From IMG/VR virus record IMGVR_UViG_2671180921_000004, positions 1 through 7,745 of that record: a stretch of DNA of 7,745 nucleotides; one strand, 5' to 3'. The stretch comes from a virus. Taxonomy: Duplodnaviria > Heunggongvirae > Uroviricota > Caudoviricetes. Positions 1 through 7,745 of this stretch are shown here, in pieces; position 1 is the first letter of the stretch; every line of letters begins with the position of its first letter. The notes under the pieces are model-generated. The model ran no database searches. It saw only the letters and a list, made by a program, of their open reading frames with translations, and was not told the origin of the DNA. A program made the position numbers and the translations under genes.

Positions 1-16
1 GATAGCCATAAGTGTT

Positions 17-157
17 TTATCCATTTTGGGGAACTCCTGGCTGATTAAGTACGTCGATGAGTCGTTTCCATCCGTCACGTAATTTACGTGTGATTCGCTC
101 AAGTAAAGATTCGGAAGGGCAGCCAGCAACAGGCCACCCTGCAATGGCATATTGCAT
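17..157 (-). CDS. cIII: cIII-like regulatory protein (FtsH/HflB inhibitor that stabilises cII), 46 aa
   Basis: Not in the ORF track (under 60 aa). Minus-strand translation from the ATG at 157 gives MQYAIAGWPVAGCPSESLLERITRKLRDGWKRLIDVLNQPGVPQNG*, matching lambda cIII as I recall it almost residue for residue over the N-terminal 43 aa. A TAAGGAG Shine-Dalgarno lies about 6 nt upstream. Stop TAA is at 17-19 (plus-strand tta). Confidence 0.8.
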   Translation of the reverse strand: MQYAIAGWPVAGCPSESLLERITRKLRDGWKRLIDVLNQPGVPQNG

Positions 158-262
158 GGTGTGCTCCTTATTTACGCTTTAAATTGCTCCGTGTATTCAC
201 TCGTTGGAATGAATACACAGTGCAGTGTTTATTCTGTTGTTTATGCCAAAAATAAAGGCAGA

Positions 263-886
263 CTATGCGGCCTCGGAAGGAAGTCCAATCATCTTATTCA
301 AATCTTCTACCCGTAAAGCAGGAAGTGCTGTACTTGCTTTATCTGCTTCTTTTGGTAGCAATTCTTTGCTTTCAGGCCAAACTTCAATAAGTCGCTTAAC
401 TGTTGTGACTGAGTTCAAAGCAGCCCATACATTTGATTCGATATCCTTTTTCTTGTCTTCAAGTTTTTGTTGCAATGCGCAGATTTCATCAAACCTTTTT
501 GTTATTTCGTGTTCTGCGTCAAACATGCATTTATCTTTGGTCGGAGTAGGGAGCAATATATCTTCGCCGTTGCCGTCTTTCCCATATGAATGCCATCCAA
601 CCCTTCTGCCAGATACAGTCAGATAAATCGAAGTAGAACGAACATCGCATGAGTAAAATGAACATCCCATCTTTTCAAGTTCTTCACTTATAGCTACTAA
701 CCTGGATGATAACTGATCCACTTCATCAGTTTTCTTTTTACCGCCAAACGCAATAACTCTGGCGTCAAGTGCAAGCTGGTTCTTTAACTTTGTTACTTCT
801 TCAAGTTCAGTGAAAACCCCAGACTTAATTAAAGCGTTACGAGCGATTTCCTCTTTCATTCTCGTAGTTAAGCGGATTGATGACAT
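263..886 (-). CDS. hypothetical early-left (PL operon) accessory protein, 208 aa
   Basis: Long minus-strand ORF (track 263..946). The start was chosen at the internal ATG at 886 (MSSIRLTTRMKEE...), which is preceded by GAGAGGA; the longer track ORF would run to within 2 nt of the N stop. Same orientation as cIII and N. No family recognised from the sequence alone. Confidence 0.6.
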   Translation of the reverse strand: MSSIRLTTRMKEEIARNALIKSGVFTELEEVTKLKNQLALDARVIAFGGKKKTDEVDQLSSRLVAISEELEKMGCSFYSCDVRSTSIYLTVSGRRVGWHSYGKDGNGEDILLPTPTKDKCMFDAEHEITKRFDEICALQQKLEDKKKDIESNVWAALNSVTTVKRLIEVWPESKELLPKEADKASTALPALRVEDLNKMIGLPSEAA

Positions 887-947
887 ATTAATTCCTCTCA
901 AATAAGTGGTTTGCTGCCTAATTTCATTTTCTGGCGACCAACACAAG

Positions 948-1220
948 TCATCTTGCTGTCAGTTGTTTGGATTTCCGGTAGCCTGCCGCGTAAAGAGCTA
1001 CGTTCGGAAGACAAGTTGAGCCTTCATATTTTCTGGTCAACGTTGTCAGTGTTATTACTTCTGCTCTCATTGCTGGTTTGCGCTTGCATTGCAAGACCAC
1101 TCGAGAGGGGGTTGGTCTGTGTAGCTTGTCGGAGCTAATCGCCTCCTGACTTTGCAGGTTTGCGCGACGAGCTCTACGACGAGAAGCTGAGGTGCCTTTA
1201 AATTCTGTTTTTCTGGACAT
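948..1220 (-). CDS. N: N-like transcription antitermination protein, 90 aa
   Basis: Start taken at the ATG at 1220 (MSRKTEFKGTSASRRRARRANLQSQ...), preceded by GGGAGGA. The N-terminal arginine-rich motif SRRRARRA resembles the lambda N ARM (QTRRRERRAEKQ). The C-terminus LPNVALYAAGYRKSKQLTAR resembles the P22 gene 24 (N-like) C-terminus as recalled. It lies immediately downstream of the nutL and PL elements. Confidence 0.75.
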   Translation of the reverse strand: MSRKTEFKGTSASRRRARRANLQSQEAISSDKLHRPTPSRVVLQCKRKPAMRAEVITLTTLTRKYEGSTCLPNVALYAAGYRKSKQLTAR

Positions 1221-1318
1221 AGATTCCTCCCGAATAAACTTTGGTGATGCAATCTCGAAGCTCCTCCTGAGACGGTTGCTTCGGCATTGCATCCCACAGC
1301 TCATGTGGTTGGGTGATC

Positions 1319-1365
1319 TGGCTTTTCAGCCACGTAGTCGAGAGTTCGACGTTGTTTAAAGAGCC
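1319..1365 (-). promoter_or_regulatory. nutL: nutL site: boxA-like GCTCTTTAAACAAC (1351-1364) and boxB hairpin UGGCU-GAAA-AGCCA (1319-1332) on the leftward transcript
   Basis: Read on the minus strand, GGCTCTTTAAACAACG is followed 18 nt later by TGGCTGAAAAGCCA (5-bp stem, GAAA loop). Both elements have near-identical counterparts at nutR (4084-4129). Position between PL and N matches lambdoid layout. Confidence 0.6.
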
Positions 1366-1410
1366 TGCCAGTCTGTTCCGTTTGGCTTCCAGCGTCCTGC
1401 TGACGGTTAA

Positions 1411-1439
1411 ATAGTACGATATGTACTTTATTGGGTCAA
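1411..1439 (-). promoter_or_regulatory. PL promoter with embedded operator (OL1-like): -35 TTGACC (1434-1439), 17-bp spacer, -10 TACTAT (1411-1416)
   Basis: Minus-strand read is TTGACC-caataaagtacatatcg-TACTAT. The spacer and -10 region carries AAAGTACATATCGTACT, which is 15/17 identical to a motif in the PR spacer (3813-3829). Confidence 0.55.
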
Positions 1440-1625
1440 TACGATTTGTTCTAAAATAGGGTGGTTTTTTATAACACTTTGTATTTAATAGTGTTGTTTT
1501 TTAGCGTGGGTGTATCGCCTCGGCGATGTAAGGAGAGATCAGAATTGCGTGGTTTAGTGAGTTGTATCTATTTATTTTTCAATAAATACATTTGGTTATG
1601 TGTTTTTAGGTGGCGAACGTGAGGC

Positions 1626-1651
1626 AAAGAAAACCCGGCGCTGAGGCCGGG
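1626..1651 (-). terminator. rho-independent terminator closing the leftward cI/TAC transcription unit
   Basis: On the minus strand the hairpin CCCGGC-ctcagc-GCCGGG (plus 1634-1651) is followed by TTTTCTTT (plus 1626-1633). It sits 10 nt downstream of the stop of the SecB-like gene. Confidence 0.6.
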
Positions 1652-1660
1652 TGGGGAATT

Positions 1661-2065
1661 TCACTTATTACTGTTCGTTTCCATGGGATTGGCCAAGAAA
1701 TCAAAATAAGGCAGAGTGAACCTACCAAGATTTGACATGAGGATAATTTGCTCGGCATATGTTTTTATATAGGGATATGCCATATTGGGAGCAATGGACC
1801 TTACCTCATATGATTTTGCCATTTCATGAGAAAAATCATCTTCTGACCGGAAGTCAAAGTCGTATGTGATGTCCATCTCAAGCCTGCCTTCAATAGTTAC
1901 GGAGGCAAAATATCTCACTCTAAATAGCTTTGAATCCTTCACATTAGTGTAAAGTTCATTATTTAGATTAACGGTTGTTTTTATGGCTTTTTTTGCTGTT
2001 GAATCGCCTTCTAGCCGTGTCATAACCAAGCGTTCAACTTTTTTGCTAATGAGTTCAATTTTCAT
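1661..2065 (-). CDS. SecB-like chaperone, third gene of a toxin-antitoxin-chaperone (TAC) cassette, 134 aa
   Basis: ORF track 1661..2065. Its start ATG overlaps the upstream gene's stop by 4 bp (ATGA), indicating translational coupling. The C-terminal region ...SIAPNMAYPYIKTYAEQIILMSNLGRFTLPYFDF... resembles the E. coli SecB segment ...[38 protein letters not shown]... as recalled. Size is similar to SecB. Product call is from memory-based similarity only. Confidence 0.6.
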   Translation of the reverse strand: MKIELISKKVERLVMTRLEGDSTAKKAIKTTVNLNNELYTNVKDSKLFRVRYFASVTIEGRLEMDITYDFDFRSEDDFSHEMAKSYEVRSIAPNMAYPYIKTYAEQIILMSNLGRFTLPYFDFLANPMETNSNK

Positions 2066-2718
2066 GGTAATAATAAGTAATTTCCGTCAGAAGTCATTTC
2101 GTCATTCAGGTTGCTAGCCGCTGTGAAACTTGATGACAAGTTACTTATCAAAGAAAAAACATTCCGTTTTTCTTTGCATTTGCCGTTACCCCTTACTGCG
2201 CTGAACAACATTTTTGAAAAGTAAGATTCTGTAGCCTTTTCAGCGAAATAAGCAGAAGGTGATGTGACGGCTGACTCACACCGAGCAATGACGCTAGTCA
2301 TGGCTGTTTCTTCTTCCTCTGCGTCAACTAGGCTCCATTCAATTGCGCTCATATCTTGAATTAAGATATCTGCAGGAATTCCAAGTCCGTCATGTAGTCT
2401 ACGGATCATTGAAAGACTTAATGGACGCTTACGATTTAAGACCTCAGATACTTTAGATGCTGAGCCAATGTATTGTTTCATATCGGCATAAGAGAGGCCT
2501 TGTTGATCCATACGGAACTTGATTGCTTCTATGGGATCTGGCTTGTCCATAGGGAACTCGCGTGACTCATAGTGCTCGATAAGCAAGCCTAGTAGTTCAA
2601 ACTCATCAAAATCTTCAGTTCCAGGTTGTAAATCACTAGACGCAAGTTCAATGAGCCTTTCCATAGCTGCAGCATGCTCTTCACTATTTTTAATGATGCG
2701 CCAGCTAGTTCGATTCAT
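2062..2718 (-). CDS. higA: HigA-family HTH (XRE-type) antitoxin with a ~96-aa C-terminal extension, 218 aa
   Basis: ORF track 2062..2718. Residues about 66-121 (IKFRMDQQGLSYADMKQYIGSASKVSEVLNRKRPLSLSMIRRLHDGLGIPADILI) align with the HTH end of E. coli HigA (...IRTLMDQYGLTLSDLPEIGSKSMVSRVLSGKRKLTLEHAKKLATRFGISPALF) as recalled. GGAGG lies 5 nt upstream of the ATG. 4-bp ATGA overlaps with the HigB stop upstream and the SecB-like start downstream. Confidence 0.8.
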   Translation of the reverse strand: MNRTSWRIIKNSEEHAAAMERLIELASSDLQPGTEDFDEFELLGLLIEHYESREFPMDKPDPIEAIKFRMDQQGLSYADMKQYIGSASKVSEVLNRKRPLSLSMIRRLHDGLGIPADILIQDMSAIEWSLVDAEEEETAMTSVIARCESAVTSPSAYFAEKATESYFSKMLFSAVRGNGKCKEKRNVFSLISNLSSSFTAASNLNDEMTSDGNYLLLP

Positions 2719-3002
2719 TTAAGCCTCCACTTGTCGTACTCTGCATGAGTTCCAACTCTTTCAACTATGACCATTCCTGCCTGGTAAACAACTTGGACAA
2801 CGAGCCGATAGTTATTGCCTTTTATATTAAAAATTACCCTGTTGTTAGGAAGGAAGTCGGCAGAATTAAATCTATTCCGTATGTCTTGAGTCGTTTTCCA
2901 GTTTTCTCTTATCACTTCATCATACCAAGAGTCTAAAGCCCCCTTGGCCTGATTGTGCTTCCGGCTAAAACTGTGAAGCTTCTCTACGTTTAAGACCTTC
3001 AT
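2715..3002 (-). CDS. higB: HigB-family toxin (RelE/ParE superfamily mRNA interferase), 95 aa
   Basis: ORF track 2715..3002. The segment NRVIFNIKGNNYRLVVQVVYQAGMVIVERVGTHAEYDKW aligns with E. coli HigB HYVFNVGGNELRVVAMVFFESQKCYIREVMTHKEYD as recalled. Toxin-first gene order is typical of higBA. Confidence 0.85.
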   Translation of the reverse strand: MKVLNVEKLHSFSRKHNQAKGALDSWYDEVIRENWKTTQDIRNRFNSADFLPNNRVIFNIKGNNYRLVVQVVYQAGMVIVERVGTHAEYDKWRLK

Positions 3003-3024
3003 AATCCGATTTTGTTCCCTCTTT

Positions 3025-3057
3025 GGGAATTATAGATTCATTTCCCATAAAGGGAAT
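3025..3057 (-). promoter_or_regulatory. putative promoter and operator of the higB-higA-secB-like operon: -10 TATAAT (minus strand, plus 3029-3034) flanked by GGGAAT / TTCCC-ataaa-GGGAA inverted repeats
   Basis: A perfect TATAAT hexamer on the minus strand lies 26 nt upstream of the higB ATG. GGGAAT occurs at 3025-3030 and 3052-3057, with TTCCC at 3042-3046 forming the dyad TTCCC-ATAAA-GGGAA. No good -35 is visible. Antitoxin autoregulation sites are typically palindromes over the promoter, which is the basis for the operator call. Confidence 0.35.
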
Positions 3058-3087
3058 CTGTATTTTTATCCAGAAATGCTATGTACA

Positions 3088-3747
3088 TCACCCAAACGTC
3101 TCTTCAGGCCACTGGCTAGCGATAACTTTCCCCACAACGGAACAACTCTCATTGCATGGGATCATTGGGTACTGTGGGTTTAGTGGTTGTAAAAACACCT
3201 GACCGCTATCCCTGATCAGTTTCTTGAAGGTAAATTCATCACCACCAAGTCTGGCTATGCAGAAATCGCCGGGCTCAACAGCTTGCTCTGGGTCAACCAG
3301 AATTAACATCCCGTCAGGAAAACTAGGTTTGGAACCTGTTGGGGCGGTCATTGAGTTACCTTCAACCTCAAGCCAGAATGCAGAGTCACTGGCTTTTTTG
3401 GTTGTGCTTACCAATCTCTCCGCATCGCCTTTGGTAAAGGTTCTGAGTTCTGGAGAGAACATCCCAGCCTGAACATGAGAAAAAACAGGGTACTCATATT
3501 GTTTTTTAACTGGGGCCGATGAGTATTCGCCAACAGGTGAAAATGTCCCGTCGTGGTTGAATGATATGTTATCAATACCAAGGTATTTAAACACCACACC
3601 AATATCACTAAGAGATGGATGACGAGATCCGCGCAACCAGTGTCCAATCCCACCCTGCGTCATACCTAGCTCTTCGGCTAACTTCTCTTGAGTTATGCCG
3701 AGCTCTTTCATTCTGGATCTAGCCAGTTCATACCATTTCATTTTCAT
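3088..3747 (-). CDS. cI: cI-type prophage repressor: heterologous N-terminal HTH domain fused to a lambda-cI-like C-terminal LexA/S24 autocleavage and dimerisation domain, 220 aa
   Basis: The C-terminal ~135 aa ([28 protein letters not shown]...[18 protein letters not shown]) are near-identical to lambda cI as recalled, including the Ala-Gly cleavage region and the catalytic Ser/Lys context. The N-terminal ~85 aa ([45 protein letters not shown]...) are not lambda-like. Start taken at the ATG at 3747 (alternative ATG at 3741); the track ORF extension to 3909 would cross the operator region into cro and is rejected. Confidence 0.9.
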
Positions 3748-3857
3748 GTCCTTATTATTACGCTCTGTATTGCAACCATCCATGCACAATGTGTATTTTT
3801 GCTTGCATTCAAAAAGTACATATTGTATTTTTTCTTCATGGTTACTATGGAGGGCAT
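3748..3857. promoter_or_regulatory. OR region with divergent PRM/PR; PR -35 TTGCAT (3803-3808) and -10 TATTTT (3826-3831); operator-like repeats with TGTATT cores at about 3760-3775, 3784-3799 and 3813-3829
   Basis: 110-bp gap between divergent cI and cro. The motif AAAGTACATATTGTATT (3813-3829) sits in the PR spacer and -10 and matches the PL spacer motif at 15/17 positions. Two further related repeats (CACAATGTGTATTTTT, CTCTGTATTGCAA) recur at about 26-32 bp spacing. Confidence 0.55.
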
Positions 3858-4073
3858 ATGAGCAACCTACGAAAATATCGAGAGTCACTGAATATCTCTC
3901 AAACAACACTTGCTAAGGCAGTTGGATGCACACAGGGAGCTATCGGACATTGGGAATCTGGTCGTCGCTTCCCAGACCTTAAAACATGCCGTGCTCTTGT
4001 TGCGTGTCTAAACAAGTTAGGCGCAAAAGTAAGTCTTGATGACGTGTTCCCGCCGGAGCACAAATCCGCTTAA
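3858..4073 (+). CDS. cro: Cro-like HTH (XRE-family) regulator, 71 aa
   Basis: Start at ATG 3858 with GGAGGG 4 nt upstream. The HTH region [24 protein letters not shown] parallels the cI N-terminal HTH ([24 protein letters not shown]), as expected for two proteins sharing operators. Divergent from cI. The longer track ORF from 3789 lacks an RBS and overlaps the operators. Confidence 0.8.
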
Positions 4074-4083
4074 TAAGCGGAGC

Positions 4084-4129
4084 CGCTCTTTGTAACAACG
4101 GACATTCGTCCTACGTCGCTGAAAAGCGA
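4084..4129 (+). promoter_or_regulatory. nutR: nutR site: boxA CGCTCTTTGTAACAAC (4084-4099) and boxB hairpin UCGCU-GAAA-AGCGA (4116-4129)
   Basis: Immediately downstream of cro. Near-identical in architecture and sequence to the nutL elements on the opposite strand (boxA GCTCTTT..AACAAC; boxB N-GCU-GAAA-AGC-N). Confidence 0.6.
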
Positions 4130-4214
4130 GCCCCAAGATATCTGACCAACTAAGGCCATATGCGTTTCCACGCATACCTTTCAACTAACTATTCACTATT
4201 GGAAATCTTAAGAA

Positions 4215-4511
4215 ATGGAACAAACAAGTTACAGCAAACTATCACAGCGTGACGTTGATCGCGCAGAAACAGATTTACTCATCAACCTGTCAACGCTTAC
4301 CCAGCGTGGTCTGGCAAAGATGATTGGCTGTCATGAATCGAAGATAAGCAGAACGGACTGGCGGTTTATTGCTTCGGTCTTGTGTGCTTTCGGAATGGCA
4401 TCAGACATCAGTCCAATTAGCAGGGCTTTTAAGTATGCGCTTGATGGAATCACAAAGAAAAAACGCCCGGCGGCAACCGAGCGTTCTGAACAAATCCAGA
4501 TGGAGTTCTGA
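4215..4511 (+). CDS. cII: cII-like transcriptional activator, 98 aa, with a lambda-identical C-terminal tail and a divergent N-terminal region
   Basis: The C-terminal 18-19 aa (KKKRPAATERSEQIQMEF) match the lambda cII C-terminus as recalled. The N-terminal ~80 aa differ from lambda. Position between cro/nutR and O is canonical. Confidence 0.8.
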   Translation: MEQTSYSKLSQRDVDRAETDLLINLSTLTQRGLAKMIGCHESKISRTDWRFIASVLCAFGMASDISPISRAFKYALDGITKKKRPAATERSEQIQMEF

Positions 4512-4533
4512 GGTCATTACTGGATCTATCAAC
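4457..4533 (-). ncRNA. oop: oop antisense RNA (about 77 nt), antisense to the 3' end of cII, with its rho-independent terminator
   Basis: The minus-strand sequence GTTGATAGATCCAGTAATGACCTCAGAACTCCATCTGGATTTGTTCAGAACGCTCGGTTGCCGCCGGGCGTTTTTT matches the lambda oop RNA as recalled. GC-rich hairpin (plus 4464-4483) followed by a U-tract. Confidence 0.6.
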
Positions 4534-4543
4534 AGGAGTCATT

Positions 4544-5443
4544 ATGACAAATACAGCAAAAATACTCAACTTCGGCAGAGGTAACTTTGCCGGACAGGAG
4601 CGTAATGTGGCAGATCTCGATGATGGTTACGCCAGACTATCAAATATGCTGCTTGAGGCTTATTCAGGCGCAGATCTGACCAAGCGACAGTTTAAAGTGC
4701 TGCTTGCCATTCTGCGTAAAACCTATGGGTGGAATAAACCAATGGACAGAATCACCGATTCTCAACTTAGCGAGATTACAAAGTTACCCGTCAAACGGTG
4801 CAATGAAGCCAAGTTAGAACTCGTCAGAATGAATATTATCAAGCAGCAAGGCGGCATGTTTGGACCAAATAAAAACATCTCAGAATGGTGTATCCCTCAA
4901 AACGAGGGAAAATCCCCTAAAACGAGGGATAAAACATCCCTCAAATTGGGGGATTGCTATCCCTCAAAACAGGGGGACACAAAAGACACTATTACAAAAG
5001 AAAAAAGAAAAGATTATTCGTCCGAGAATTCTGGCGAATCCTCTGACCAGCCAGAAAACGATCTTTCTGTGGTTAAACCGGATGCTGCAATTCAGAGCGG
5101 CAGCAAGTGGGGAACAGCAGAAGACCTGACCGCCGCAGAGTGGATGTTTGACATGGTGAAGACCATCGCGCCATCAGCCAGAAAACCGAATTTTGCTGGG
5201 TGGGCTAACGATATCCGCCTGATGCGTGAACGTGACGGACGTAACCACCGCGATATGTGTGTGCTTTTCCGCTGGGCCTGCCAGGACAACTTCTGGTCCG
5301 GTAACGTGCTGAGTCCGGCCAAACTCCGCGACAAGTGGACCCAGCTCGAAATCAACCGTAACAAGCAACAGGCAGGCGTGACAGCCAGCAAACCAAAACT
5401 CGACCTGACAAACACTGACTGGATTTACGGGGTGGATTTATGA
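4544..5443 (+). CDS. O: replication initiation protein O (origin-binding), 299 aa
   Basis: Translation matches lambda O as recalled (MTNTAKILNFGRGNFAGQERNVADLDDGYARLSNMLLEAY...). AGGAG RBS upstream. Contains the ori iterons internally. Stop overlaps the P start (ATGA). Confidence 0.95.
   Translation: MTNTAKILNFGRGNFAGQERNVADLDDGYARLSNMLLEAYSGADLTKRQFKVLLAILRKTYGWNKPMDRITDSQLSEITKLPVKRCNEAKLELVRMNIIKQQGGMFGPNKNISEWCIPQNEGKSPKTRDKTSLKLGDCYPSKQGDTKDTITKEKRKDYSSENSGESSDQPENDLSVVKPDAAIQSGSKWGTAEDLTAAEWMFDMVKTIAPSARKPNFAGWANDIRLMRERDGRNHRDMCVLFRWACQDNFWSGNVLSPAKLRDKWTQLEINRNKQQAGVTASKPKLDLTNTDWIYGVDL
4892..5016. other. origin of replication (ori-lambda type): four ~19-bp iterons with internal dyad TCCCTC-N5-GAGGGA, followed by an AT-rich DNA-unwinding region
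   Basis: Iterons visible at about 4892-4910, 4911-4930, 4931-4955 and 4956-4980 (ATCCCTCAAAACGAGGGAA, ATCCCCTAAAACGAGGGAT, ATCCCTCAAATTGGGGGAT, ATCCCTCAAAACAGGGGGA), then AAAAGACACTATTACAAAAGAAAAAAGAAAAGATTA. Located inside the O coding sequence as in lambda. Confidence 0.85.
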
Positions 5444-6141
5444 AAAACATCGCCGCACAGATGGTTAACTTTGACCGTGAGCAGATGCGTCGGATCGCCA
5501 ACAACATGCCGGAACAGTACGACGAAAAGCTGCAGGTACAGCAGGTTGCGCAGATCATCAACGGTGTGTTCAGCCAGTTACTGGCAACTTTCCCGGCGAG
5601 TCTGGCTAACCGTGACCAGAACGAACTGAACGAAATCCGCCGCCAGTGGGTTCTGGCTTTCCGGGAAAACGGGATCACCACAATGGAACAGGTTAACGCA
5701 GGAATGCGCGTAGCCCGTCGGCAGAATCGACCATTTCTGCCATCACCCGGGCAGTTTGTTGCATGGTGCCGGGAAGAAGCATCCGTTATCGCCGGACTGC
5801 CAAACGTCAGCGAGCTGGTTGATATGGTTTACGAGTATTGCCGGAAGCGAGGCCTGTATCCGGATGCAGAGTCTTATCCGTGGAAATCGAACGCGCACTA
5901 CTGGCTGGTTACCAACCTGTATCAGAACATGCGGGCCAATGCGCTTACTGATGCGGAATTACGCCGTAAGGCCGCAGATGAGCTTGTCCATATGACTGCG
6001 AGAATTAACCGTGGTGAGGCGATCCCTGAACCAGTAAAACAACTTCCTGTCATGGGCGGTAGACCTCTAAATCGTGCACAGGCTCTGGCGAAGATCGCAG
6101 AACTCAAAGCTAAGTTCGGACTGAAAGGAGCAAGTGTATGA
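5440..6141 (+). CDS. P: replication protein P (DnaB helicase loader), 233 aa
   Basis: Translation matches lambda P as recalled (MKNIAAQMVNFDREQMRRIANNMPEQYDEK...). ATGA overlap with the O stop. Confidence 0.95.
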   Translation: MKNIAAQMVNFDREQMRRIANNMPEQYDEKLQVQQVAQIINGVFSQLLATFPASLANRDQNELNEIRRQWVLAFRENGITTMEQVNAGMRVARRQNRPFLPSPGQFVAWCREEASVIAGLPNVSELVDMVYEYCRKRGLYPDAESYPWKSNAHYWLVTNLYQNMRANALTDAELRRKAADELVHMTARINRGEAIPEPVKQLPVMGGRPLNRAQALAKIAELKAKFGLKGASV

Positions 6142-6428
6142 CGGGCAAAGAGGCAATTATTCATTACCTGGGGACGCATAATAGCTTCTGTGCGCCGGAC
6201 GTTGCCGCGCTAACAGGCGCAACAGTAACCAGCATAAATCAGGCCGCGGCTAAAATGGCACGGGCAGGTCTTCTGGTTATCGAAGGTAAGGTCTGGCGAA
6301 CGGTGTATTACCGGTTTGCTACCAAGGAAGAACGGGAAGGAAAGATGAGCACGAACCTAATTTTTAAGGAGTGTCGCCAGAGTGCCGCGATGAAACGGGT
6401 ATTGGCGGTATATGGAGTTAAAAGGTGA
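6138..6428 (+). CDS. ren: Ren protein (confers resistance to Rex exclusion in lambda), 96 aa
   Basis: Translation MTGKEAIIHYLGTHNSFCAPDVAALTGATVTSINQAAAKMARAG... matches lambda Ren as recalled. ATGA overlap with the P stop. Confidence 0.8.
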   Translation: MTGKEAIIHYLGTHNSFCAPDVAALTGATVTSINQAAAKMARAGLLVIEGKVWRTVYYRFATKEEREGKMSTNLIFKECRQSAAMKRVLAVYGVKR

Positions 6429-6453
6429 CCATCTACATCACTGAGCTAATAAC

Positions 6454-6486
6454 AGGCCTGCTGGTAATCGCAGGCCTTTTTATTTG
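6454..6486 (+). terminator. rho-independent terminator (tR2-like) downstream of ren
   Basis: Hairpin AGGCCTGC-tggtaatc-GCAGGCCT (8-bp perfect stem) followed by TTTTTATTT on the plus strand. Confidence 0.65.
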
Positions 6487-6500
6487 GGGGAGAGTAAATC

Positions 6501-6707
6501 GTGGTTGAGTTGATTTTTTCTGCATTGAGGATTCTCGGTGCTATGTGGATGGTGTCGACGTTCATTGCGGTTGTCGGAAGTTTTGTCCGGTTGGTAGGCG
6601 AAGGTAAAGACCTGGTGGGTGTGCTGTTCGGTAGCATTCTCCTGTGGGTGATTATCGGTGTTGCGCCTGTCGCTGTAGCAAAAATGGCGTGGCGTTTTGT
6701 TAGTTGA
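6501..6707 (+). CDS. small hydrophobic protein with two predicted transmembrane segments, 68 aa (GTG start)
   Basis: ORF track 6501..6707. Two hydrophobic stretches (ILGAMWMVSTFIAVVGSFV and LVGVLFGSILLWVIIGVAPVAVA). GGGGAGAG lies about 6 nt upstream of the GTG. Coding status is uncertain: short, non-ATG start. Confidence 0.4.
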   Translation: MVELIFSALRILGAMWMVSTFIAVVGSFVRLVGEGKDLVGVLFGSILLWVIIGVAPVAVAKMAWRFVS

Positions 6708-6714
6708 GGGGAAT

Positions 6715-6993
6715 ATGAGCGAGATCTACCGACAATTCGAAGAGTGGTGGTCAAAACACAAAAGCCCGTTCACGGAAGACGATGAGCTAAAAGAGTTTGC
6801 CTGGGAGATATGGCAGGCATCGCGAGCAACTATTGAACTGGATATCGACTGGCCCGAATCGAATGACGACTTTTGGAAAGATGGTGAAGAAGGTGCTTAT
6901 GCGATGGGTTATGAGGATGGGCGTGACAAAACGGTAATTGCAGTAATGAAAGCCATCAGGGCCGCAGGAATCAAAGAAAAGAATTTCGATTAA
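6715..6993 (+). CDS. hypothetical small acidic, Trp-rich protein, 92 aa
   Basis: Start taken at ATG 6715 (MSEIYRQFEEWW...), preceded by GAGGGG. About a quarter of residues are Asp/Glu. No recognised family. Confidence 0.55.
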   Translation: MSEIYRQFEEWWSKHKSPFTEDDELKEFAWEIWQASRATIELDIDWPESNDDFWKDGEEGAYAMGYEDGRDKTVIAVMKAIRAAGIKEKNFD

Positions 6994-7125
6994 GCAAATA
7001 TCACTTCAATAAATCGCTTTTAAGGCATCACAATCGCTCTGTAGTGAGGTAAGTGCGTGCAAGGAATGCCGATAAGCAGCGAGAATGAAAAATGCGTCAG
7101 AATGCGTTTGAGGAGGTTTTAAGAA

Positions 7126-7341
7126 ATGAGTACGGTAGCTGAACTTGTCAGGGCTAATTTTCGTGAAGAGTTGGTGCGTTGGTATCGGTATCGTTCATCG
7201 TCCAGTTTGCCGCTTGATGAGTTGTATGAGCATTCACCTGCCGCACGACGCTATCCGCGTGACCGTGTTCTTCGACGGTTGTTCAAACTCAACAATGAGT
7301 TTCAGCGCAACAGAATTATCCGGAGTCTGGATTTAAAGTGA
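7126..7341 (+). CDS. hypothetical small basic protein, 71 aa
   Basis: ORF track 7126..7341. Strong AGGAGG RBS about 9 nt upstream of the ATG. Arg-rich. No recognised family. Confidence 0.45.
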   Translation: MSTVAELVRANFREELVRWYRYRSSSSLPLDELYEHSPAARRYPRDRVLRRLFKLNNEFQRNRIIRSLDLK

Positions 7342-7351
7342 AGGAGTGAGC

Positions 7352-7534
7352 ATGAGCGAGCAAATATTCAGAGAGATTAAGCCACGGTTTTATCGCAAGG
7401 TAAGGGTGGTTTATCAGGACGAAAACAAGACCTGTGCATACGCCATTCATAATGGTCGGTGGTCAGTGTTCGACACCAAAAACTTCGAGAAGAACTTCGA
7501 GAGGATTAAGGGTGATGAGGAAACTAACATTTGA
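7352..7534 (+). CDS. hypothetical small protein, 60 aa
   Basis: Start taken at ATG 7352 (MSEQIFREIK...) with AAGGAG 5 nt upstream; the track ORF begins at the GTG at 7346. Its 3' end overlaps the ninB-like start by 20 nt. Confidence 0.45.
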   Translation: MSEQIFREIKPRFYRKVRVVYQDENKTCAYAIHNGRWSVFDTKNFEKNFERIKGDEETNI

Positions 7535-7745
7535 ACTAAGAAGCCCCATCCATCAGCAGAACGCCATTCCAGCTAGCCAGCAAATCCTGCCAGCCCCAAC
7601 CTAACCAACCGTAGTAACCATTCAGGACCGCAACCGTAGCTTAGACCACAACCGAAAGCTCCGAGATTGCCCTGGTGACGTCTCGCGTCAGGTTGAATGG
7701 CCGGATAGTTGTCTGGATGCCGAAAGCTGGACGTGTGTGTTTACC
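7515..7745 (+). pseudogene. ninB: ninB/Orf-family recombination protein homologue, interrupted by an in-frame TAA at 7602-7604 and truncated by the window end
   Basis: Frame from ATG 7515 reads MRKLTFELRSPIHQQNAIPASQQILPAPT*PTVVTIQDRNRSLDHNRKLRDCPGDVSRQVEWPDSCLDAESWTCVFT, versus lambda NinB MKKLTFEIRSPAHQQNAIHAVQQILPDPTKPIVVTIQERNRSLDQNRKLWACLGDVSRQVEWHGRWLDAESWKCVFT as recalled. The stop replaces the Lys codon at position 30. Not in the ORF track because of the stop. Confidence 0.5.

Follow-up and report, generated by a model that had tools for sequence, protein, structure and literature searches.

Organisation of the higBAC operon

The 7,745-nucleotide stretch of viral DNA analysed here (IMG/VR record IMGVR_UViG_2671180921_000004, positions 1 to 7,745; hereafter, the window) covers the part of a lambdoid Escherichia coli prophage that governs immunity and replication. 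This work concerns the gene at positions 1661–2065 of the minus strand, designated higC, and the cassette to which it belongs, a candidate toxin–antitoxin–chaperone (TAC) system. The cassette consists of three tightly packed minus-strand genes (2715–3002, 2062–2718 and 1661–2065) in which adjacent genes share 4 nt, the stop codon of higB overlapping the start codon of higA and the stop codon of higA that start codon with which higC begins. The end of the operon is marked by an intrinsic terminator-like hairpin followed by a T-run (1623–1652, minus strand; hairpin 1652–1633), located 8 nt past the higC stop codon; its stem comprises 7 pairs, 6 of them GC, and is followed by TTTCTTTGCC. The gene overlaps, one terminator after higC and synteny across genera characterise the cassette as a single operon kept as a unit, as in TAC systems.

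The first gene of the operon, higB (2715–3002, minus strand), encodes a 95-amino acid (aa) toxin of the HigB/RelE family, a recognised family of type II toxins; it matches Pfam HigB_toxin with an E-value of 4.5e-30 (104 bits, the cut-off being 27) and the PADLOC model PD-Lambda-2_A with an E-value of 2.5e-42, and its sequence is that of WP_000866443.1 from E. coli O26:H11 11368 (100% identity). The product of the second gene, higA, combines an antitoxin domain of canonical type with a C-terminal extension. Residues 1–121 (2356–2718, minus strand) form a HigA/Xre-type helix-turn-helix (HTH) domain recognised by PADLOC PD-Lambda-2_B, with residues 5–127 aligned to positions 3–125 of the 402 positions of the model (3.8e-50), while the match of residues 67–118 to Pfam HTH_3 (E-value 3.6e-4) was under the gathering score. 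Residues 122–218, which together with the stop codon occupy positions 2062–2355 of the minus strand, were assigned as a chaperone-addiction (ChAD) element by their match, in length, boundaries and residues, to the published HigA of E. coli NT1F31, in which this extension is described as disordered (Mets et al., bioRxiv 10.1101/2024.02.24.581848). No domain match to these 97 residues was found in Pfam or PADLOC. The ChAD aromatic residues W128, F158, F188 and Y214 could be read from the translation.

HigB, HigA (220–241 aa) and HigC follow one another in this order also in a Pantoea prophage, a metagenomic lambdoid phage and Serratia, where HigC shares 50%, 55–58% and 61–63% identity, respectively, with the protein from the window. 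The N-terminal domain of HigA is strongly conserved in the Pantoea, Serratia and metagenome homologues, while the extension diverges, apart from W128, F158 and F188, which do not vary, and position 214, which is either Y or F. The homologous cassettes mostly adjoin a cI-type repressor.

Relationship of HigC to SecB

The gene higC has an ATG start codon and encodes a 134-aa protein, for which a role as a SecB-like toxin–antitoxin (TA) chaperone is indicated by profile searches, predicted fold and synteny. A preliminary description of the window had proposed this identity from the resemblance of the segment APNMAYPYIKTYAEQIILMSNLGRFTLPYFDF to a known region of SecB. The segment is indeed present, as residues 92–123 of HigC (1697–1792, minus strand), covering the end of the loop preceding helix alpha1, helix alpha1 itself and the next loop, and the SecB segment cited for comparison is genuine, corresponding to residues 102–134 of PDB chain 1qyn_A. 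BLASTP of HigC against SecB, as a single comparison, gave an E-value of 0.018 and aligned only this segment, and 4.7% of 2000 shuffled sequences attained an equal Smith–Waterman score against E. coli SecB. The resemblance of the motif alone is not beyond chance, and the preliminary description was right to flag its call as unverified.

Other single-sequence matches of HigC were uninformative, being limited to a spurious one to Pfam 3Beta_HSD (0.13) and, in a phmmer search of PDB, to RPABC3 (0.09) and Fyn (2); SecB was not listed in the latter search at E-values up to 10. To build profiles, 28 close homologues were collected, 19 of which were aligned with the query into a narrow 20-sequence profile, and an exhaustive hidden Markov model search of 1.84 billion representatives yielded 120 relatives and, from these, an 87-sequence alignment seeded from HigC. 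The 87-sequence profile retrieved SecB chains exclusively from PDB, over the full length, with E-values of 2.2e-6, 1.8e-5 and 1.9e-5. Pfam SecB was matched at E-values of no more than 0.01 by 74 of the 87 family members, the best value being 1.4e-13. The gathering threshold of this Pfam model, 26 bits, was not reached by HigC, which gave no match, or by its close homologues, the best of which scored 21.6 bits. In addition, residues 1–129 of HigC match PADLOC PD-T4-9_C (for CmdC, a SecB-like chaperone validated as part of CmdTAC) with an E-value of 3.2e-11. The profile comparison that had been suggested as a check of the SecB call was therefore positive, with SecB as the only family found in PDB and most members matching Pfam SecB.

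The family-profile alignment also allowed the correspondence to SecB to be examined residue by residue. Within the motif, the P-N pair, the aromatic-P-Y element and the basic residue are in register, as are the L and F towards its end (P93-N94/P103-N104, Y97/F107, P98-Y99/P108-Y109, K101/R111, L118/L128 and F123/F133, HigC and SecB, respectively), while the two other proposed elements are not, G-x-F being offset by 3 residues and FD by 1 residue; BLASTP and hhalign brought G-x-F into register only by means of an extra 3-residue gap. No other part of the family is as conserved as the motif, in which P98 is invariant and P93, L118, P119 and F123 are each conserved in at least 90% of the 87 sequences. 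The stretch singled out at the outset was therefore the correct one and truly homologous.

Predicted structure of HigC

The AlphaFold2 model of the HigC monomer has a mean predicted local distance difference test (pLDDT) score of 86.9 and a predicted template modelling score (pTM) of 0.80. It contains four long beta strands (residues 3–17, 30–40, 47–58 and 62–74) and two helices, one short and the other long (residues 86–110). The topology of the model is that of SecB, with a four-stranded antiparallel sheet followed by the long helix alpha1. When the monomer model was compared with PDB structures using Foldseek, the top 19 matches were all SecB-type chaperones; the best was Mycobacterium tuberculosis Rv1957 with a ChAD peptide (5mtw; E-value 5e-7, TM-score 0.73–0.75), followed by matches including E. 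coli SecB (1qyn, 5jtl) and Haemophilus influenzae SecB (1fx3, 1ozb). M. tuberculosis HigBA1-SecB-TA (Rv1955-Rv1956-Rv1957; PDB 5mtw) is the founding TAC system. The comparison of structures thus gave the same answer as the profiles, and both the 87-sequence profile and the fold support the SecB-like identity of the third gene, which is predicted to encode the SecB-fold chaperone expected in a TAC operon.

Correspondence with HigBAC of E. coli NT1F31

HigBAC has been described as a prophage-borne anti-phage TAC system of E. coli NT1F31 (Mets et al., bioRxiv 10.1101/2024.02.24.581848). In that study, HigBA was toxic without HigC and was rescued by it, HigA lacking residues 122–218 was chaperone-independent, and HigB specifically blocked translation. 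HigBAC restricted phages lambda-vir and Bas25, and escape mutants carried the substitution S54P in gpV. A peptide covering residues 48–78 of gpV bound HigC with a dissociation constant of 250 nM and competed with a ChAD peptide. HigC was modelled as a tetramer, and isothermal titration calorimetry gave a stoichiometry of about 0.5 peptide per chain. According to the authors' model, nascent gpV diverts HigC, leading to inactive HigA and free HigB (Mets et al., bioRxiv 10.1101/2024.02.24.581848).

The NT1F31 operon and the one in the window have the same gene order and occupy the same site downstream of cI. Both HigA proteins consist of 218 aa, with the ChAD at residues 122–218, and the residues named in the publication, W128, F158, F188 and Y214 of HigA and Y39, N41, R49 and D71 of HigC, are all found at the same positions. 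Identity was tested by comparing the NT1F31 cloning and mutagenesis primers (Dataset S1), rather than full proteins, with the window. Seven primer parts, falling in higB, at the higA–higC junction and at both ends of higC, are exact, among them the HigB cloning primer at 2973–3002, while the 'native terminator' primer has one mismatch to positions 1622–1641. For all three proteins of the cassette, the identity to their counterparts in E. coli O26:H11 11368 is 100%. As judged from the primers and named residues, the window carries the published HigBAC or a near-identical allele, and this correspondence with an experimentally validated system supports the TAC reading of the preliminary description.

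Assignment of higC and alternative interpretations

Altogether, the gene at 1661–2065 of the minus strand is assigned, with a probability of roughly 0.93, as higC, encoding a minimal SecB-fold chaperone and the third component of the HigBAC anti-phage TAC system, located in the variable slot that follows cI in this lambdoid prophage. This assignment draws on fold, family, operon anatomy, synteny and sequence correspondence, all obtained in the present work. The system is already known, having been dissected in 2024, and the locus presents no new biology.

Several observations weigh against this assignment. HigC alone had no match to Pfam SecB (PF02556) at E-values up to 1 and none in NCBIfam. 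The narrow 20-sequence profile found only thioredoxin in PDB (E-value 1.1), with SecB not significant, and hhalign gave a probability of 0.33 for its alignment with E. coli SecB; these failures are explained by the family being too shallow at the depth of 20 sequences. The HigC model does not contain helix alpha2, residues 111–134 being coil and the last of them having low pLDDT. The NT1F31 primer for the 5' untranslated region does not match the window, and so the cI-side flank upstream of higB differs from that of the published clone, while the comparison with NT1F31, consisting of primers, named residues and the length of HigA, does not prove full identity. Lastly, chaperone dependence, assembly into a tetramer, triggering by gpV and defence against phages are carried over to this allele from the literature.

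The same fold is present in the E. coli and H. influenzae SecB proteins, and the broad profile aligns with SecB over the full length; HigC could accordingly be imagined as a phage-borne paralogue of the export chaperone that feeds preproteins to SecA and is not dedicated to a TA system. However, HigC is only 134 aa long, and its model has neither helix alpha2 nor the C-terminal tail of export-type SecB, residues beyond 110 being free of helix and the chain ending at 134. The acidic residues D20 and E24 of SecB correspond to R12 and T16 in HigC, in a part of the alignment of low reliability. The gene higC is translationally coupled within a TA operon, its start codon overlapping the stop codon of an antitoxin gene with a long extension, the three-gene synteny is kept across genera, the structure closest to the model is that of Rv1957, a TA-dedicated chaperone, and the published HigC rescues HigBA toxicity, all of which make an export function highly improbable. 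We consider even less credible that HigC is a nucleotide hydrolase, as implied by the name 'SMODS-associated NUDIX' (Pfam Sa_NUDIX, PF18167) that UniRef gives to one homologue. This family was matched by 8 of 20 close homologues at E-values up to 10, and homologue P0027 scored 26.9 bits against a cut-off of 25, but HigC itself gave no match up to the same E-value, and only 1 of the 87 family members matched at 0.01 or below, as compared to 74 for SecB. Moreover, the Sa_NUDIX match in P0027 (residues 19–124) overlies its Pfam SecB match (residues 16–122), HigC has no RE dipeptide and hence no Nudix box (REUxEE), and no NUDIX structures were present among the fold matches. The absence of the Nudix box and the contradicting fold search led us to reject this reading. 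Since PF18167 and SecB match the same approximately 105 residues of a protein with a SecB-like fold and no Nudix box, the PF18167 model may have a relationship to SecB-like proteins or include some of them as contaminants. As a side effect, the PF18167 label provides a HigC-family protein with a misleading UniRef name.

A further interpretation accepts a true TAC system, and regards its main role in this prophage as addiction or stabilisation, or its trigger as other than gpV, in which cases the NT1F31 defence mechanism would not be transferable. This view draws on the function of the present allele being assigned by analogy, and on the upstream flank and one base of the terminator, which differ from the published clone. 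On the other hand, all residues shown or predicted to participate in ChAD and gpV recognition are present, the primer sites are identical in all three genes, and the locus is the one where lambdoid phages classically carry exclusion genes. We regard this interpretation as very unlikely, although less so than the two described above, and retain the assignment of higC as a component of an anti-phage HigBAC system.

Proposed mechanism

The sequence correspondence leads us to infer that the published mechanism carries over to this allele. HigB would act as a ribosome-dependent mRNA interferase, neutralised via the N-terminal domain of HigA. The disordered 97-residue ChAD would keep HigA non-functional unless held by the HigC tetramer, with W128, F158, F188 and Y214 of the ChAD expected to slot into the HigC pockets of Y39, N41, R49 and D71. 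Upon infection by a sensitive siphovirus, the nascent major tail protein (gpV in phage lambda), which would present a similar pattern of aromatic and acidic residues, could compete for HigC; HigA would then be inactivated, and HigB would shut down translation, resulting in restriction of the phage.

Comparison with other systems

HigC and Rv1957 have only 14–17% sequence identity, and the ChAD encoded in the window is more than twice as long as that of M. tuberculosis HigBA1-SecB-TA. E. coli HigBAC also differs from the M. tuberculosis TAC system in being prophage-borne and having a demonstrated anti-phage role, and the published E. coli HigA, unlike its M. tuberculosis counterpart, is not under ClpXP control (Mets et al., bioRxiv 10.1101/2024.02.24.581848). 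The housekeeping SecB proteins (1qyn, 5jtl, 1fx3) are 11–17% identical to HigC, which is about 20 residues shorter, and the housekeeping secB gene is located in the cluster yibN-grxC-secB-gpsA, whereas higC belongs to a TA operon (Mets et al., bioRxiv 10.1101/2024.02.24.581848).

CmdTAC/PD-T4-9 (Vassallo et al. 2022, PMC9519451) is likewise a prophage-borne TAC defence system with a homologous chaperone, but has an ADP-ribosyltransferase as toxin and an unrelated antitoxin (PMC9519451). CmdTAC targets T-even phages, while HigBAC targets lambda (Mets et al., bioRxiv 10.1101/2024.02.24.581848). Another system, PD-lambda-2 (Vassallo et al. 2022, PMC9519451), has as its components A and B close relatives of HigB and of the N-terminal domain of HigA. 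There, a single protein combines the HigA-like domain with a peptidase, and the product of the third gene is like a P4 antitoxin (PMC9519451), while in the window, a ChAD terminates the antitoxin and a SecB-like chaperone is encoded by the third gene. One toxin–antitoxin core, corresponding to positions 2356–3002 of the window, thus occurs with two arrangements of the third component and sensor, those of HigBAC and PD-lambda-2.

Prophage setting

The nearest gene upstream of higB, in the same orientation, encodes a cI-type repressor with HTH and S24 peptidase domains and is present as a maximal open reading frame (ORF) at 3088–3909 (minus strand; Pfam Peptidase_S24 1.9e-28, HTH_3 2.6e-10), within which the true start codon probably lies. 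To the right of cI, a cro-like HTH gene is followed by cII, O and P, all on the plus strand. On the other side of the cassette, the N antiterminator gene was identified at 948–1304 (minus strand; Pfam N_peptide 7.6e-32). With cI upstream of higB and N at this position, the cassette fills the cI-to-N interval, which is occupied by rexAB in phage lambda, as is also textbook knowledge (Mets et al., bioRxiv 10.1101/2024.02.24.581848). In the leftward early operon, N is followed immediately by a gene for a protein with nucleotide modification associated domain 5 (Nmad5; 263–946, minus strand; Pfam 9.1e-71). A promoter-like site at 1411–1439 of the minus strand (TTGACC, a 17-nt spacer, TACTAT) is found between the HigBAC terminator and N, in the place expected for pL; this site is a consensus match only, and the promoter scan returned sites no more frequently than in shuffled sequence.

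Distribution and implications

The cassette was detected in 88 of 5426 complete E. coli genomes and, with 99.6% identity, in many phages converting to Shiga toxins Stx1 and Stx2, including BP-4795, ST2-8624 and those with an immunity region of the H-19B type. The whole window (1–7745) had no full-length match in complete E. coli genomes, and the best match covered 73% of it at 97% identity, which shows the prophage to be a mosaic. In many genomes, the block of homology containing the cassette begins only at about position 1525, and the match to O26:H11 11368 extends to the query end at 3100, its annotated cI not lining up with the cI ORF of the window. HigBAC seems to be passed from one immunity region to another as a modular unit. 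RefSeq labels HigC as a 'hypothetical protein', including that of E. coli O26:H11 11368; in GenBank phage records, it is mostly a 'hypothetical protein' or unannotated, and none of the listed records gives it a functional name.

The observations on BP-4795 concern positions 1600–3010 of the window and 8720–10061 and 36187–37032 of that phage. Phage BP-4795 is long-tailed, and its annotated major tail subunit has almost no similarity to lambda gpV. In particular, it contains no counterpart of the gpV region from W36 through DDED to W67, the gpV sequence used having been checked only against the residue numbers in the publication and one primer. As far as these two sequences indicate, such a difference would fit a carrier that does not trigger its own HigBAC. 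We tentatively propose, at somewhat less than even odds, that lambdoid prophages swap sensors on a constant core of HigB and the N-terminal domain of HigA, and that Stx siphophage carriers escape self-killing at induction by means of a major tail protein that has lost the motif recognised by HigC. Neither the sensor-swap nor the self-avoidance idea is present in the preprint of Mets et al. (bioRxiv 10.1101/2024.02.24.581848).

The point that remains for this system is a gap in annotation, HigC escaping both Pfam and NCBIfam, and prophages of enterohaemorrhagic E. coli carry a defence system that is unannotated, yet experimentally understood. If the proposed exchange of sensors is true, HigB and the N-terminal domain of HigA would constitute a 'warhead' that is coupled to the ChAD and HigC in this prophage, and to a peptidase fusion and a P4-antitoxin-like protein in PD-lambda-2.
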